A stretch of 63,808 nt of DNA, counting the filler, from Basidiobolus ranarum (Eukaryota), in assembly GCA_040143965.1 (NCBI GenBank). It is 11 parts of 11 records of this genome, joined end to end, with 100 filler letters (N's around TTAATTAATTAA, not from the genome) between each part and the next. Parts side by side here need not be neighbours in the genome. Positions count along the whole stretch, not along the records: positions 5,834 to 11,564 come from JASJQH010008391.1; 10 more parts are not named here. One strand, given 5' to 3'. Below are positions 5,015-51,894 of this stretch, piece by piece. The position numbers and the translations under genes were made by a program. Within the stretch, counting starts at the first letter, position 1. Each line of letters starts with the position of its first letter. Under the pieces are notes generated by a model. It searched no databases. It had not been told where the DNA came from and saw only the letters and a list, made by a program, of their open reading frames with translations.

Positions 5015-5733
5015 TGGGATCAGAAATAGCCCTGGTTACTATATCAATGAACCTGAGATTGGGCCTATGCCTGCACAGCTCAAATGCATGAGCCCCAGAC
5101 TGTAAAAGAGGCCCTGAATGGCCCTCACACAAAATTTTGGATATCTGCAATGGCTGATGAGTGCCTGGCTTTGATTGATAGTCAAACGTGTATTTTAACC
5201 AACTCACCTGCTGCTAGAGAATCAATTGGCTGCAAATGGGAGTATAAAGTTAAATACAACTCTGGTGGCAAAATAGAAAGGAACAATGCTAGACTAGTAG
5301 CTAGTGGCTATTCCCAAACTTTGTTGCACAGCATATTGCTTAATTCCAGCTCAAAAACGCTCAAAATTGGAACCCAAAAGCAGAAAATGCATATTTCTTG
5401 GTTACTGTGATGGATCCAAGGCCTACAGACTGTTTGATACCAAAAATCAGAAGTTAATTAAGTGCAGAGATGTGATTTTTGATGAAAAAGCAAATTTTTC
5501 ACCTCAAATCACAGTTCTTGATCCAGAAAACACAATCAGCACTATTCAGGAAGTGTCTGACAAAATTCCAGCTCTATCTGAGCCCAATTCAACCGAAATT
5601 TCAGTCCCAATTACATCAAAGGATGATGCAGGACCCAGAAGATCATCCAGAAGGAGAAATAAGCCAGGAAACTGGTGGAACACTTCCAATGATGATGTAT
5701 ATGCTTATGCAGCATTCTGTGACAAGCCACAGA
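5015..5733 (+). mobile_element. Copia pol fragments (RT N-terminus fused to an integrase C-terminal segment), truncated by the contig end
   Basis: EPQTVKEAL...IGCKWEYKVK...ARLVASGYSQ (RT start) is followed in another frame by RSKLEPKSRKCIFLGYCDGSKAYRLFD...RDVIFDE (post-integrase SH3-like segment). Confidence 0.88.
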
Positions 5734-5833: not shown

Positions 5834-7172
5834 TACATTTGACTGATTACTTGGGTACCACCTATATTTAGCTCTATTACACAAATGGCAGAAATGTTTA
5901 GAAAAGATAAAAATACTCAAACAAGTCCAAGACTCTTCACACCTAACTTCAAACTTTCTGAACTTCCTGGAGACACATCTTTTTTGTTATTTTGCCCATT
6001 TATGACAACATTACAAACACTCATTTTCAATCAAATGTAAGTTCAAATCACATTTTTTCCAATGATCTAAAACGCTGCTAGTTCAATGCAAAGGCACCCA
6101 GCAAAGCTAAGCTTGAGTTTAACTACTAATCAATGCTTGATATGAATTTCCTATTACTTTTTGACTAAATTCATTTGTTAGTGCTGATATTCAATATCTT
6201 AGTTAACTTTAGTCATGATGCATATATCAGAAACAAGAAAGCATTGCATCTATAGCCCCTATGTTCCAATCGGGAGTTTCTCCATATCTAAAAAACTAGT
6301 ATGCTTTGCTACCCCTGTACCTATTATATCTTATTACCCAAACTCTTAAGTGTCTTAAACAATTGATTTACTTCTCTGCTATGTATGTCACCATATTCTG
6401 TTAAGAATAAGCCAACTGAAACAGTATCACCATTTATCTCTATATAAGCAAGTTTATCTTCATTATGACTAGATCCTCCATTAGACACAAGCATACTGTG
6501 CATCACTAGTCTCTTGTACACTGACCATCATTTGCAATGCTACCCAAATATACGCTTGATAGCTAATAATACTATTCTCTGTTGCTTTAACAATATGATT
6601 GCATTATCTTGCTATTTCGATTCATAAACACTTTGATGACGAATCTAGCGCAATCACTTGACCTAGAAAAAAAGGGCTTGAAACCTGTTTAGAATCCCAA
6701 CTGCACTAAATATCACTCACTAATAATGATACCTAACTGTGGCTTATACTAAACCCATATGAACGAAATTACGCTTCATGACAGGGTAGAGTGAATAAGT
6801 GAATGGCACTGTTAAAACTTAGATTATCTGGATATCAGTAAGGCGTATATGATCAGCATGTATGCACAGTGAAACACTTCTAACATTTTCATCAAATACC
6901 GCGATAGTGATAATCCGTAACTACAATCCAGCTATATCTTGTAACACGTTTAGTATCTGCATGAAATATATATACGTAACAATGTATCATACACTACATC
7001 CTGAAACTGTGCGAAATAGTTAATGCACCTCAAGGGCTGAAAATGCAGGGCATTATGCATACGTGAAGACAAACACTTGGTTACGTACGTATATGTACTC
7101 TGTATAAATACACGTACATTTCCCTCATGTATCAGCACTCCCTCATTCAACCTTTCTTTTTTCCCTCATATA

Positions 7173-7892
7173 ATGCGCTGCCTTTATTCTCTGATTGCTC
7201 TGGTTGCCAGTATTCAGCTTGTACAAGGTAGCTATGGTGATGACAATGGAAGCGACAATGGTGGTGACAACTACGAAGCCCCTCAGGTATGCAATGCTCC
7301 ATCGTCCCAAGCTCCATTTAACAATAAGGCATTTTCATCCAATGAGAAAACCGACCCTGCCAACTTCGATAGTGTTGTTAGGGGACCGGGCTACACAGCT
7401 GCTTCATTGTTAAAAGCTGGCTGGGGGCCTAACAAGATGGTGCACGTTAATGGGTACAAATTCATTTTACCCAAATGGGGGAAAGGTATGAAAGACAACT
7501 GGATTGAGGGAGGACAGAAGGTGAAGGTCACTTCTGTGCCTGGTGCCACTCGGTTAGGGTTCCTACTATCAAGTGATATGGGAAACTTTGGAGGTAAATT
7601 CCATATCGTCTACACCGACTGCACTACTCAGGTTGAACGAGTAGGTGCAACTGATTGGAAATGGAAGATTGAACATGCACCTGGCAACACCATTGCACGT
7701 AATGGATTTTGGGCTACTAACGGAGGGGACGTTCGGATATACACCACTGAAGTAGACATTGATCCTAGTAAGACTATAGCTTACGTGCAGTTCCCAATGG
7801 CGAATGAAATCTATGACATCCATCCATATAGTAAAGGTACTAAGGGTCATGTTCATGTATTTGCACTTGCAACAAAAAAAGTAGGGTATTGA
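7173..7892 (+). CDS. Secreted 239-aa protein with a bacterial-type glycoside-hydrolase-associated beta-sandwich domain
   Basis: ATG at 7173 follows TATAAATA (~7103). Signal peptide MRCLYSLIALVASIQLVQG; intronless. Motifs FNNKAFS...ANFD...DN..GQ...RLGFL...YTDCTTQ...DW...DPSKTIAYVQFP...HVFALA match my recollection of the C-terminal domain of actinobacterial GH92-type proteins. Confidence 0.8.
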   Translation: MRCLYSLIALVASIQLVQGSYGDDNGSDNGGDNYEAPQVCNAPSSQAPFNNKAFSSNEKTDPANFDSVVRGPGYTAASLLKAGWGPNKMVHVNGYKFILPKWGKGMKDNWIEGGQKVKVTSVPGATRLGFLLSSDMGNFGGKFHIVYTDCTTQVERVGATDWKWKIEHAPGNTIARNGFWATNGGDVRIYTTEVDIDPSKTIAYVQFPMANEIYDIHPYSKGTKGHVHVFALATKKVGY

Positions 7893-10800
7893 TTGATCAA
7901 TCAGTTTCAATATGATCCTGATATTGTGACTGTGACTATTGTTTGAAAAATAAACTGTCTGTTATGATTGTCAGCCTCAACCTAGTAAATAATTGGCCAT
8001 GATGATAACGGTTAAATAAGAGTTTACAGGTAGACTTTGAATGTCTTGGTGTCAGGCTAAATATGCATGTAACTTTGATGGCCAAGTAAAAGATAAGCGG
8101 TTTTCGTCAAAAATGGAAGAAGCAGTCATCTAGGGAAATTTCTTTACCCATCAATGTGCAACGTTGAAATATCGAAAGACAGGACCAAGTTCAAAAAAGA
8201 GTAACGAAATAAAATGAACCTCAGCAAATAGCAAAAAATATCCTACTTCCCTTATATATATATAACCACATTATAAAGTCTCCGGCTACATGTCCTTGAT
8301 ACTAATAGACCTTGAATTGAGCTCCTCCAGTGTTAGTTTAGGTTGCTCCCAGAAGTCTATCAAACTGACCTCTCTTCCGGAGTTGATACATTGGATTAGT
8401 ATCATACCATAGCAAACCTTTGCCATCTCGAGACTTGTATTAGTCCAGATATGCCACTCGGTTAACATCTCTTACTTAAAGAGCTCTATTTTCCTGTATT
8501 AATATGTTTCTTTAATTCAACCATATTGAAGACTATTGACTACTTTTGGATATCCTCCTCTGCAGTCTCTATTCCACTGAATTTAAAGAAAACGTGCTCT
8601 CTTTTCCAATTGCTTGGAGATGTTAATGATTGAGAGGATTGCTAACAATCCACAGCATTCAAATCTTCTTGGAACCTGACAAGGAGTGTAGTGCTAAGGT
8701 ATACTTACGGAAATTAAGCAATGGTCTTGCCCAGTACGATATACATTGGCATTACTAGCGCTAACTGTAGTAAGCATACTTATGAATGTACATCATGCAA
8801 CTTGGGTTCTATTAATTCATGGAATTGAATTATAGAATATTTGATAGGTCAATGGTTGTATTTCATTTTTCACTGAGGATTTCATGCTTGCTCATTGATC
8901 TATCCTATCAATCAAGCAATCAGTCTTCTATGTTACCAAATTATCCATGTGTCTATCTATTTTGGCCATATGAATATGCCCATTATTCTATATCAGTTAG
9001 TAATCATTTGTTATTCATTGACTGGATAGCACGAAAGCTCATAAACTTACCAATATATTGTGAATTCAAATTTGAAATATTCCGTTGAAGATATTTGCCC
9101 ACAACATATATGTTAACTCCATATCTGCATATAATACATGTCAAATATATATTAACGATTTAATTAGACAAGGTTACTCTATCTTATGTTGGCCTGTATA
9201 TTGAGGATACCAAACTTTAGATAGATAGATATATACCTCTCATATCTAAATTATGTGCCTATCATGAAATCGTTTCAGCACATATTGAGTAATGTAATCC
9301 TTTTTCGATCTATATTCTTTGTGTTATATTTTTCGAGGTACAGATAAATGGCTGACTTCTCAGTTAAAATTGGATATTTGATGCTCATGTAGCATGTTCC
9401 TGACTGGAAAGGTGTGTAGATAGCTTTTCATTAAGCATAAGAAATTTGTGGAGTATATGAGATACGTAAATATCACAATGGCAAGAGCTTTGTATATTCA
9501 AATATATGTTTGCACTCAGCTATAGCATGCAGTGAAAAAACAAATCATGTTTATTGTTTGTAAGCTATTTATTGCCTCTTCAGCTTATCCAACCATATAG
9601 CTTTATATATGTAGTATATATTCTTTATTGGGACAAGTATAAATAGGCTCAACCTGTCTGAAAACCATTCATAGTGAATGATATTGTAACCCAGGTCAAC
9701 AAGATCATACATATATCAGGGCTTGTTGGAAGTGGTTGGTACTAATTGACAATGTTGTTCTGGTTCTTATGTTGAATCAATCTCACGTGCTTAGGCCAAG
9801 AGTGAGCAGAGTTGAAAGAGAGTACTATGTTGTTATGGTACTCAGGAAGTTGGGTCAGAATTATGGGAAGTTTTGAGAAAACAAGAATTTATTGTTTCCC
9901 ACATTGCAGAGATATATCGGGAAACATATGAAATGATTTTAACTTCAATTTTAAGACTTTCAATAACTTAACCTGCAACGTGAATATTTATGTTTCTAGC
10001 GCGAATATTTGAGCATTAATATACATATGGAAACCAGTGGATACAATGTTCACTTACAAAATAGATGGAATTATGCGCTATGTGAATATTGTAGTGCTTA
10101 ATTCTAGTACAACTAAAGCTGGTACAGTAGGAGTTTCAAGAAATCACCCAAATTCAGTTGAATTGAAGCCTCCTATTCAGGAACGAAACTAAGCTTGAAA
10201 GTTGGAAACTTCGATCTATAGCACACAATATTCTCATACTGGAAGTGGTATAGAAATGCAGATCAATCTACTATCGATGGATTTGCAGTTGCATGCTAAG
10301 ATTACCACTGTTACAAAAACAATTTGAATGCAAGGAACCAAGAACCTAATGGTTTTGAAAGATCGTTAGTGCGTAGAAAGATACCTCTTGGATTGACCAA
10401 TAATTCTTTAGAATCTTATAAAAATCAGGGAAGATACTTTCATAGAGCAATGCTAATCCTAGCATGCAACCACGTAGACAGAGCTACAAATATAGAAATC
10501 ACTCGGCTGGCTCGCTAACTGAGGTTGCGATTGATTGAAAATGGACATGAAATACTATATTTATGTTAGGATACAGCCACTAAGACTTACTTGAGATAAC
10601 TCTAAAGTACTACCAAAGGCAGCATAGTATTACGTAGTTGCAATGACCCAAACGCGGATTACTAAATTTGATATGAACTGCGCAATATCCAACTGAGCCA
10701 CTATCACACATATGTACAAAGCCGTATCTCCTATTGCTCAATGCGAGCTCCAAATGAGAATGAACGGATGTGTGTGCGTGAGTTATTCCAATTCTTTACT

Positions 10801-11309
10801 TGGCTATTGTACTATCAAATTTCCATATAGACCTATAGATAATACAATTCATCCACTTCCAACCTGTCTTGATACAAAGTTCTCGGGGTATGTGAGAATA
10901 AAAGTTACAAAGAGTTGATGCAAAGGCAACAAAGGACCAAATGGTGCTTTCTTTTGTGCCTATATATTACAGCAAAACGAGATTGAAGGCGTACCAGACA
11001 ACTAGTTAGTGCTGATCCCTTTAGAAAGAGGAGCCAAGATCACAGAATGGGCACTACTACAGTAATCGCACTATATGTTTGATGTGAAGGCGCTCAATGA
11101 GTACCCAACATAAGCTGGGCTATTTTTGTCATGGATTGCATAGAAACATTACAAATCAGAGATATGGACATCAACCACCTAGTGAACGCGATATTTACAA
11201 TATACATTAGTATGTTAGAATAGCATAATAAGTTCCTGTCAAACGCCGTGAATCCCAGTTAGTCATCCAGCCTCACTCACACATATCAGATGATTTCTGA
11301 AGGCCCATT

Positions 11310-11564
11310 CTAAACAAACAGGGAATGGAACAATGCCCGTTTGTACTTGTCTATGGGTCCTTCATGGGAATCATGGACCATTCCCCATCCTGCTTCAATG
11401 TTCTCTTGACGTCTAGTCAGCATATCTTGATACACAAGGGAAAGAAAAGAACCATCTCCAAGATGAGAAGACTCTTCCGTAGAATGACGACATTCGAGAG
11501 CCTGGCCCCAGATGCTTTTAGTTAGTTGGAAAAGGCTGAGGGATGGAACTCTACCCATTGGCCA
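11310..11564 (-). CDS. Possible 3' end of an unidentified gene, truncated by the contig end
   Basis: Open frame from the contig edge to TAG (WPMGRVPSLSLFQLTKSIWG...DKYKRALFHSLFV*) with gene-like GC content. No family recognised. Confidence 0.35.
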   Translation of the reverse strand, partial: WPMGRVPSLSLFQLTKSIWGQALECRHSTEESSHLGDGSFLSLVYQDMLTRRQENIEAGWGMVHDSHEGPIDKYKRALFHSLFV

Positions 11565-12227: not shown

Positions 12228-12854
12228 TCATTGTACACTTAAGCTGGCTTGTTGCCTTAAGTGATTGATAGCCATCTGGCGATAATGCTCCAACTCGGGT
12301 ACTTTCAAATCCACTACTTTGGCACCATCATCCCATCTTCTGATGGCAACCTTTTCATTGTAGTATGGTAACTTTTCAAAATCTGCAACTTCCTCTGGAG
12401 TATATGGACCACCTTGGTATTTCAGAGAGAGCTTACTAGCATCACTCAGGGTATCATAGTATTCGGCGTACTTTCCAGTCAAGTAACGCTTTACAGGTAC
12501 ATGGGCCTCTACCAAGGCAGTGACCTTCTTTGAAAATCCTAATCGAGTCAAATATTCCGCGCCAATACGCTCATGTCCATGAACACCAACACTAAATGGC
12601 TCCGTAGCCCCCGCTAAATCGGTAGCCTCCACAAGCATCGCTTTCGACTCAGGAGAGCTCACGAATTGCCCGATATCATGAAGTAAAGCAGCCAAAATAG
12701 TCTCCTCGTCAGCACCGTTTTGCTCAGCTGAGGCAGCAGCCTGGAGAGCATGATCTAGTTGAGAAATCGATTCACCAATGTAGCCGCGCTCACTTCCATC
12801 CTGGAGGCATTGAAATACGTTGTTGATCACTCGGGCACATTTATCATCTAACAT
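12228..12854 (-). CDS. phnZ: PhnZ-like HD-domain diiron oxygenase (phosphonate C-P cleavage family)
   Basis: Motifs YIGESISQLDHALQAA, ALLHDIGQ, HERIGA, HVPVKRYL, LSDASKLSLKYQGG and RRWDDGAK give the full PhnZ/TmpB motif set. Intronless; likely ATG at 12854 (208 aa). Confidence 0.88.
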   Translation of the reverse strand: MLDDKCARVINNVFQCLQDGSERGYIGESISQLDHALQAAASAEQNGADEETILAALLHDIGQFVSSPESKAMLVEATDLAGATEPFSVGVHGHERIGAEYLTRLGFSKKVTALVEAHVPVKRYLTGKYAEYYDTLSDASKLSLKYQGGPYTPEEVADFEKLPYYNEKVAIRRWDDGAKVVDLKVPELEHYRQMAINHLRQQASLSVQ

Positions 12855-50058: not shown

Positions 50059-51894
50059 TTAGTTCATGGTCATCAGTGTGGTGAGACCAAAAACTAGACT
50101 GATTGAGATTCCACCATAGCTTAGGGAATTGGCATCAGAGACATTTTTCTTTTCTGTGACCTTACCATTACCGCTGACAGCTGCGGTGTTACTAGGCTTC
50201 TTGGCACAGTTGGTGTTGCATGTGTGATAGCAATCGTCCTCTGGGTATTGTGGTTGTTTACCAGTAACGTTGGCATGACCCCAACCAAGATCTAAGTTAC
50301 AATCACTGTAAGCATGGAAATTGGAGGCACCGTACCAGTCCATTAATCCAGCGAGTGCCCCTTGGAACCCTGCATTATAATCTTGTGTTACTTCAGTATA
50401 TACGTAATTCGTGCGATCATCAAAGAAAGTATCATCAGTATCAGGTCCTCCAACCAATGCTCCGTAAAGGATGAATCGGTTCTTGGTCATACTATTCAAA
50501 AAATCATCACCAACCACGGACTGAGCTTTTCCTCTCAGTGGGTACTCAATGTAGGAGTTGTAACTACCCTTATGATAAGGTCTCTGGGGGTAATCTTGGC
50601 CAAATCCGACCACCCACGATCTACCACAGTCACCTAGGATGTAATTCATCTGTTGTGTGGCATGATTCAACAATTTCTTGGAGTATGGATCATTATATCC
50701 AAGGTCTTTAGCATGGTAAATCATTCCAAAGGCAGTGTTAGCAGAGTAGGATAGAGAACCCCATTTTTCATAAAACGATAGCCCCCGTGGGGTTTGTTTC
50801 ACCTTCTGCTGTGGCCCAGGGAGCCAGCTATCGAAGAATTTCTGTGCATTGGTCTTATAAACTTCCTGCTTAGTGATATGATACAGGAGGACATGGCAAG
50901 CGGCACCTTGATCATCCCACGACCATTCAGAGCCTGCGTTGACAGCAGCGTTATACCACTTGATACCTTCATCAAGATATGTCTGGTTATTGGTAGCTTG
51001 ATACAGGAATAAAGCGGCTAAGGCGAGTTCGTCTCTCCACTCAGTAGAAGGATACCACTCCTTCACGGTAGTCCAATTGGTGTCTTTGGAGGTCATGAAG
51101 GTTCCGGGATAGGAGGAGCCGAAGTTGTAAAGTTGGGCTGCGTGATCAATTAGAGTTTTGGAATAAGTGGGATCAGAATCTTTGAATATCATAGCGGTGG
51201 CAGCCATGGCAGCCGATGCAATACCAACAATCTCCGACGATGGATTTTCTGGGGTTACATAGAATGCGGTGTGCATGATTCCCAGAGGGACATATTGCTC
51301 ATAAAATTCAGGTGGCCCGAAATAGCCAAAATCCACGTCAGTCGTACCAACAGCAGAGGTACCAAGCTGAGCAACGAAAGCGAGAGGCTGGGGATGGGCA
51401 TTGATGAGATAATCCGTACCCCATTTGAGATTCTCCATAGCCTCATTCTTTTCGTTGACACTCTCCATGGCATCTCCAAAGGCCAAGATATTAAAGGCCA
51501 GCTGCATCACAGTGTATCCTAGTGGTTGCGACCACTTCATAGTATTAGCGGCTTCGTACCAACCACCACTGAGATCCTCACCATATTTACCCTTGCACTC
51601 GAAGCAAGAATCAGAACGCCAGGCTAGTCGTTGGTATGGAAGCTTTCCTGAGCTCTGAGTATGGTAGAAACTTTGCGACTTGTGCAAGACCTCGGAATAG
51701 TCGTATTTGGCCTTTTCGGGAGCGACGTAGTTAGGCGAAGCCAATGGTCCGGGGGGAGTGATACGGGGATCTTCAGGAGTGCCATTTTTAGGGCTTTCTT
51801 GCTCATCGAGCTGAAAAACCCTACGAGAGTCGGCTAGTTGAAAGGAGCATAAAGAGAGAACGACGGAGGCGGAAGCAAAATTCGAAAGCTTCAT
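50059..51894 (-). CDS. Glycoside hydrolase family 9 protein, secreted and probably GPI-anchored, with a non-canonical catalytic motif
   Basis: Signal peptide; motifs YSEVLHKS..FY..Q.SGKLP, WRSDS, DLSGGWYEAAN, KWGTDYL, WRDELA, GALVGGP and DDRTNYVYTEVTQDYNA; hydrophobic C-terminus; intronless. Confidence 0.92.
   Translation of the reverse strand: MKLSNFASASVVLSLCSFQLADSRRVFQLDEQESPKNGTPEDPRITPPGPLASPNYVAPEKAKYDYSEVLHKSQSFYHTQSSGKLPYQRLAWRSDSCFECKGKYGEDLSGGWYEAANTMKWSQPLGYTVMQLAFNILAFGDAMESVNEKNEAMENLKWGTDYLINAHPQPLAFVAQLGTSAVGTTDVDFGYFGPPEFYEQYVPLGIMHTAFYVTPENPSSEIVGIASAAMAATAMIFKDSDPTYSKTLIDHAAQLYNFGSSYPGTFMTSKDTNWTTVKEWYPSTEWRDELALAALFLYQATNNQTYLDEGIKWYNAAVNAGSEWSWDDQGAACHVLLYHITKQEVYKTNAQKFFDSWLPGPQQKVKQTPRGLSFYEKWGSLSYSANTAFGMIYHAKDLGYNDPYSKKLLNHATQQMNYILGDCGRSWVVGFGQDYPQRPYHKGSYNSYIEYPLRGKAQSVVGDDFLNSMTKNRFILYGALVGGPDTDDTFFDDRTNYVYTEVTQDYNAGFQGALAGLMDWYGASNFHAYSDCNLDLGWGHANVTGKQPQYPEDDCYHTCNTNCAKKPSNTAAVSGNGKVTEKKNVSDANSLSYGGISISLVFGLTTLMTMN

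Follow-up and report, generated by a model that had tools for sequence, protein, structure and literature searches.

The locus examined here raises the question of whether a short intronless gene of Basidiobolus ranarum encodes a bacterial accessory module that now exists as a free secreted protein, and what such a protein might do. The window, meaning the whole stretch of DNA that was analyzed (63,808 nucleotides, filler included), consists of separate contigs of approximately 5.7 kb that are strung together with spacers of N44, 12 nt and N44. Genes on different pieces are therefore not neighbours, and the surroundings of the gene are those of contig G000:C8391 alone (positions 5834-11564, 5731 bp, GC 36.9%), on which no other clear protein gene was found. 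Myosin, P-type ATPase, GH9 and further genes of the window were considered as neighbours of the gene and rejected, as they lie on other contigs. The open reading frame (P0001; 7173-7892, plus strand) runs from ATG to TGA without internal stops and encodes 239 aa. Its full-length colinearity with annotated Basidiobolus proteins makes an intron unnecessary, and the intronless gene proposed in a preliminary description of this DNA was thus upheld. The TATA box named there was found as TATAAA at 7103-7108 (plus strand), 70 nt 5' of the ATG. The same motif was present 5' of four of the five paralogues examined, so that five of six family copies carry it within 130 nt upstream, the background frequency across the window being 0.51 per kb per strand. 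An AATAAA motif 57 nt 3' of the stop (7949-7954, plus strand) may serve as a polyadenylation signal. The GC3 value of the gene (0.41) falls within the range of ten other ORFs (0.33-0.47). Upstream of the gene, a host interspersed repeat of approximately 295 bp (6188-6480) links the contig to the fungal genome; 925 first-look candidates were obtained genome-wide, of which 40 were scored, and full-length copies are 77-83% identical and spread over dozens of contigs.

The encoded protein has the layout that had been described for it. Residues 1-19 (7173-7229) are hydrophobic, with Kyte-Doolittle means over nine residues of 1.1-2.5 in the first windows, and form a predicted signal peptide in a layout that the paralogues share; cleavage would occur after G19, and the protein is probably secreted. 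A short G/D/N linker follows (residues 20-39, 7230-7289) with a net charge of -5 and, unlike most paralogues, no dibasic pair. The remainder, estimated earlier at about 195 aa and measured here at 200 aa (residues 40-239, 7290-7889, pI 9.3), is a predicted beta sandwich.

Three other features of the window were recorded. An intronless gene of the GH9 cellulase family (50059-51894, minus strand; 611 aa, Pfam E 4e-108) has a start that resembles a signal peptide and a hydrophobic C-terminus. At 12228-12854 (minus strand) lies an intronless gene for an HD-domain protein with weak MIOX similarity, which we take to resemble PhnZ-type phosphonate oxygenases and which is a possible further bacterial acquisition. 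The preceding contig contains a reverse-transcriptase remnant (5084-5410, plus strand; RVT_2, E 1e-4).

Searches with the single protein returned near-length matches only from Basidiobolus (7 of 232 candidates). The preliminary description had named best hits spread broadly over the fungi as the outcome that would speak against it, and this is not what was found in the sequence searches: the named matches listed outside Basidiobolus were bacterial. The paralogue count that it had proposed gave family matches on 10 contigs of the B. ranarum genome, and at least eight copies are distinct in overlapping sequence. Three are intact, namely the 239-aa protein of 7173-7892, a 258-aa protein and a 388-aa protein with an extra N-terminal region; one is frameshifted after the signal peptide, one is degraded with stops and five are partial, four of these truncated by contig ends and the fifth being C9312. 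B. meristosporus has seven gene models of the family on contigs of 49-194 kb. The B. meristosporus proteins ORX65550.1 / ORX91142.1, ORY02148.1 and ORX99193.1 and the B. ranarum protein KAK9763472.1 have the same layout and are 54-78% identical. Family members are annotated as hypothetical, apart from one cluster that was automatically labelled 'Concanavalin A-like lectin/glucanase'; no ConA-like chain was present among the 50 structural matches listed. Copies of the two species are interleaved in the tree, which places the duplication before the split of B. ranarum and B. meristosporus. Of 19 pairs compared, 13 are saturated in dS; the six in which dS was measurable gave dN/dS values of 0.07-0.15, and the family is kept under purifying selection.

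Several paralogues deserve separate mention. The frameshifted paralogue and the degraded paralogue with stops were seen at L002:1225-1908 and L009/L010. In the former paralogue the break lies between signal peptide and domain and no TATAAA is present, yet its dN/dS is 0.07-0.09; it may represent a recent loss or an assembly error. The 388-aa paralogue (P0012, L012:2086-3306, minus strand) carries an additional region of approximately 170 aa ahead of the domain. A likeness of this region to leaderless bacteriocins was considered, but Pfam and Atlas searches of it returned no match. Next to the C631 paralogue, a gene for a bacterial-type solute-binding protein occupies two open frames (L013:5103-6292, minus strand) and is probably split by an intron.

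Pfam and NCBIfam searches gave no family match to the 239-aa protein, catalytic or otherwise, in line with the reported absence of a catalytic GH domain. A profile built from seven Basidiobolus proteins nevertheless reached 737 clusters (50% identity) at E <=0.001. The best 150 of these 737 comprise two Basidiobolus clusters and a remainder with approximately 24-36% identity in the rows displayed and up to six domain copies per chain. Partner domains were scanned in 139 top matches outside Basidiobolus, nine short ones being left out. Glycoside hydrolase domains occurred in 26 of the 139: GH92 (15), GH3 (4), GH76 (2), GH5 (2), GH113 (1), GH27 (1) and a beta-galactosidase domain (1). Other partners were PQQ-type propellers (11), GDSL esterases (4), M4 peptidases (2) and kinases (2). 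In some bacterial chains four to six domain copies occupy most of the length and no enzyme family is matched, so that use of the module apart from enzymes is older than the fungal gene. The profile searches bore out the proposed homology to the domain that bacteria append to GH92 mannosidases and to further large secreted proteins. The C-terminal domain of the Ktedonobacteraceae GH92 protein MBV9258041.1 is 33% identical to the fungal domain over 193 columns, and the likeness to the domain appended to a Streptomyces alpha-1,2-mannosidase, which had been noticed by motif, amounts to 31% over 198 columns (pairwise E 8e-13). GH92 alpha-1,2-mannosidases of Streptomyces, Micromonospora, Kribbella and others carry such a C-terminal accessory domain with all core motifs in common; Mycobacterium, also named at first, did not appear among the matches listed. 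A GH92 query matched the B. ranarum genome solely via the appended domain. In three bacterial genomes the domain was matched 26 (G002) and 9 times (G004), both Dictyobacter, and 14 times (G005, Micrococcales), many matches lying in tandem or in frames of 1400-2100 aa.

The fold was modelled from an alignment of 59 sequences (residues 40-239, pLDDT 88.8, pTM 0.88), which replaced an earlier model from seven sequences with a pLDDT of 62. Structural neighbours in the Atlas scored TM 0.72-0.82, and their matching part is labelled PF28606; the accession is a label on these neighbours only, as the Pfam search of the protein itself gave no match. When the model was compared with 48,161 solved chains, a single one exceeded Z 8: AziU2 (Azi28) of Streptomyces sahachiroi (PDB 7WUW, 7WUX, 8GS1), which shares the fold (Z 16.1, rmsd 2.6 A, 169 aligned residues) and is likewise a stand-alone single domain. 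A deeper profile also matched AziU2 and Azi28 in the PDB at E 2e-21. The next structural neighbours were mostly sandwiches of the CBM35, CBM6, CBM29 and CBM36 type, jelly rolls that likewise have a beta-sandwich core and are appended to glycoside hydrolases, and their scores (Z 4.5-6.0 over 100-120 residues at 4-14% identity) do not rise above the tool's background. A homodimer prediction scored 0.00, which weighs neither way. Weak sequence matches to IcmE/DotG and to alpha-carbonic anhydrase were rejected, being confined to low-complexity or N-terminal sequence and disagreeing in fold. Narrow patterns gave 92 matches in viral contigs and 192 in metagenome contigs, none of which was confirmed as a relative. 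Whole-domain profile homology and fold together identify the domain as a member of an uncharacterised bacterial AziU2-fold accessory module, of which a bacterial chain often has two to six copies in tandem. The AziU2 relative, the enzyme-free bacterial chains with multiple copies and the ascomycete fucosidases in which one part matches by structure (discussed below) had been missed in the preliminary description.

Conservation across the module provides the starting point for its possible function. In 506 bacterial domains the residues conserved are N51 (87%), D66 (96%), D108 (88%), N109 (93%), Q115 (96%), Y147 (95%), D149 (97%), D161 (92%), the Trp that follows (99%) and H228 (98%). The 239-aa protein retains N51, D66, D108, N109, Q115, Y147, D149, D161, W162 and H228, the Trp match being W162 or W164 depending on the alignment. 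The Trp of the DW motif is kept in the fungal copies, and D66 is found in nine of the ten copies that reach that position. Judged from the strand topology of the model, most of these residues, D66, D108, N109, D161, W162 and H228 among them, would cluster at one end of the sandwich, and sugar sites typically combine Asp, Asn, His and Trp. Repeated copies in tandem and fusion to a wide range of secreted enzymes and sensors are what a non-catalytic binding module would show, and on these grounds the protein is read as a glycan-binding one. Counted against this are the background level of the CBM matches, the fact that AziU2 binds a protein, the many partners that are not carbohydrate enzymes and the bacterial Y-x-N motif, which is not clearly retained in the fungal domain. 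The fungal protein is also stand-alone and does not form part of a carbohydrate-active enzyme chain, as a CBM in the CAZy sense would. On balance, binding of a glycan by the domain is slightly favoured, and for the full reading of a secreted, non-catalytic glycan-binding protein the chances are about even. According to this reading an accessory module of bacteria, closest to the one at the C-terminus of Ktedonobacteria GH92 mannosidases, would have been transferred once in an ancient event, would have been fitted in the fungus with a signal peptide as well as a TATA promoter, and would have been duplicated before the two Basidiobolus species split and then held by purifying selection. The secreted protein would act non-catalytically by binding a surface glycan, with contacts made by D66, D108, N109, D161, W162 and H228 at one end of the jelly-roll sandwich.

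The fungal domains differ from their bacterial relatives in ways that could point to a more specific role. Bacterial accessory domains are fused or in tandem and acidic (median pI 4.5, net charge -6, 3.4% above pI 8.5 in the 506 domains), whereas the fungal domains are single, secreted and cationic, all 11 having a pI of 8.8-9.7 and a net charge of +3 to +11, with a median of five Trp compared with two. They also contain a pair, C40 and C150, that is specific to the fungal copies and absent from the bacterial domains; the two cysteines may form a disulfide. Linkers are acidic in nine of 11 fungal copies, and in eight of 11 they terminate in KK or KR, at the first Cys or adjoining it. These observations would suit an antibacterial surface lectin, in which the module has a polymer of the bacterial envelope as its target and cationic free copies agglutinate or damage bacteria in gut, dung or litter; the acidic pro-piece would restrain the cationic copies, and in bacteria the module would tether secreted proteins to the surface of the cell that makes them. 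Partner proteins that are unrelated to each other, here enzymes and sensors, are usual for envelope-anchoring modules, and acidic pro-pieces occur on cationic antimicrobial proteins and on gut RegIII lectins, to which the layout of the fungal linkers is similar. Basidiobolus dwells in the gut of frogs and lizards. However, four of five control proteins of the B. ranarum genome, secreted-labelled or of CBM type, likewise have a pI above 8. The charge of the fungal domain may thus be a general trait of the secretome, helped by low GC, and for this reason the antibacterial reading was graded low. The copy at 7173-7892 moreover has no dibasic pair, and a killing domain is absent. We regard an antibacterial lectin as unlikely. 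It is a little more doubtful still that the AziU2-fold module constitutes an undescribed class of bacterial envelope-glycan-binding domain that Basidiobolus rebuilt into cationic, cysteine-stapled lectins with an acidic pro-piece, which bind or kill gut bacteria. If this were true, a bacterial part would have become the fungal counterpart of gut bactericidal lectins.

The clear match to AziU2 suggests another role, that of a partner or scaffold subunit, the part that AziU2 plays for AziU3; it would stabilise or target another secreted fungal protein. AziU2 is the only clear solved relative, and it too stands alone. As far as the available parts of three reports describe it, AziU2 is the partner subunit of the AziU3/U2 complex of azinomycin biosynthesis, which makes the aziridine by elimination of sulfate (PMC9570651, PMC11168924, PMC12865890). 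Against a corresponding role in the fungus, identity to AziU2 is 16-20%, compared with 24-36% to the accessory domains, and D66 and W162 of the fungal protein, which agree with the accessory class, are replaced by Asn and Phe in AziU2. The fungal domain is therefore nearer to the enzyme-appended copies than to AziU2. A BtrH_N model, used as a stand-in for AziU3, which it probably covers going by the accessible portion of PMC12865890, found no match in the fragmented B. ranarum genome. In addition, a signal peptide is present and no gene for an AziU3-type partner, or any other neighbouring gene, lies on G000:C8391. A partner subunit is accordingly considered quite unlikely. Through the relationship itself, the 'novel fold', as the available part of PMC11168924 calls it, becomes one member of a large family, and a source for the subunit is suggested.

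The same conserved Asp, Asn and His residues could form an active or metal site, in which case the domain would bind metal or would be a small enzyme in its own right. D66, D108, N109, D161 and H228 are conserved at 88-98% in the 506 bacterial domains, as such a site would be, but arrays of up to six copies and diverse catalytic partners suit a binding module better and no enzyme family was matched. This explanation appears improbable, and glycan binding is preferred to it.

The origin of the gene was approached through the relatives outside the genus. Most profile matches are metagenome proteins without a name; every named one outside Basidiobolus is bacterial, and no other fungus was named, among the matches listed in the sequence searches. 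Nineteen top clusters outside Basidiobolus were looked up; an organism was named for seven, in each case Dictyobacter, Ktedonobacteraceae or Chloroflexota. The fungal profile matched 36 of 61 Ktedonobacteria genomes at E <=1e-12 with a best score of 94.8 bits (35 of 60 without the unpublished G210), and four of 151 sampled Actinomycetota genomes at E <=1e-8 with a best score of 68.3 bits, a thin sample of a far larger group. A tree was calculated from 79 domains, nine of them fungal and the others the 35 best-scoring non-redundant rows per phylum (655 domains were extracted, and 488 unlabelled ones excluded). The Basidiobolus clade received full support (100/100) on a stem of 1.02 and was placed among bacterial domains without a supported sister; deviant composition was flagged in seven fungal rows. 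In constrained tests neither actinobacterial nor Ktedonobacteria sisters were rejected (p 0.45-0.69), the top likelihood being obtained with five GH92-linked domains of Ktedonobacteria. The fungal clade (four rows) was then placed on all 137 branches. The best position was beside a Ktedonobacteraceae GH92 domain, 77 placements were not rejected, and the likelihood weight was 0.71 for Chloroflexota and 0.28 for Actinomycetota. Nesting within Actinomycetota, as first expected, was thus not recovered. A bacterial origin is well supported and a transfer from bacteria to Basidiobolus is very probable; for the donor, the sequence comparisons give a hint of Ktedonobacteria, and an actinobacterial donor would also fit.

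A different history would dispense with an independent transfer and derive the domain by splitting from a GH29 fucosidase of the common ancestor of Basidiobolus and Ascomycota. It draws on a pair of Atlas clusters of GH29 fucosidases, 95-96% eukaryotic and for the most part from Ascomycota, one part of which matches in predicted structure (TM 0.73-0.75). The same part, however, also matches in a cluster of actinobacterial fucosidases of equal length, which makes a separate acquisition of the whole gene likelier. GH29 was found in none of the 139 scanned top matches (the nine short ones again left out), from which it follows that GH29-linked proteins score below approximately 68 bits; bacterial domains reach 101-106. 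The B. ranarum genome itself gave no GH29 or GH92 match. Descent from a fungal fucosidase is therefore very improbable, and transfer from bacteria remains the preferred history. The contig is short (5731 bp) and has no other clear gene, as a bacterial contaminant might, but contamination is excluded by the host repeat, the GC of 36.9%, the TATA box in five of six copies, the orthologues in a second species and the lack of any bacterial sequence above approximately 36% identity in the rows displayed. The gene is a genuine fungal gene of bacterial ancestry, as had been proposed, with host-like GC3 and B. meristosporus orthologues beside its bacterial relatives.

Capture of bacterial genes by Basidiobolus is well established, and the finding is less surprising for that reason. 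The accessible text of Tabima et al. 2020 (PMC7466969) gives bacterial-gene candidates as 2-5% of the genes of Basidiobolus, 61% of them intronless. As far as that text goes, the transfers described are likewise intronless and of host-like composition; they differ from the present gene in their focus on secondary metabolism and in their donors, which are Proteobacteria, Firmicutes, Actinobacteria and Bacteroidetes. According to the available portion of a further survey (bioRxiv 10.1101/2021.12.02.471044), xenologues in fungi are commonly secreted and have sometimes lost domains. Six accessions of the Basidiobolus family are absent from the two supplementary files of its journal version (PMC11291939). 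In a literature search covering few subscription journals, no paper was found on the Basidiobolus family or on PF28606, or that gives the module a ligand.

The gene at 7173-7892 is real, and its product is a conserved, probably secreted stand-alone form of a bacterial module that is known yet uncharacterised and is widespread on the secreted proteins of soil bacteria, as the 737 clusters illustrate. The small single-domain fungal copies offer an easy route to the ligand of this module and could define a new family of binding modules. For Basidiobolus, the finding adds one conserved secreted family.
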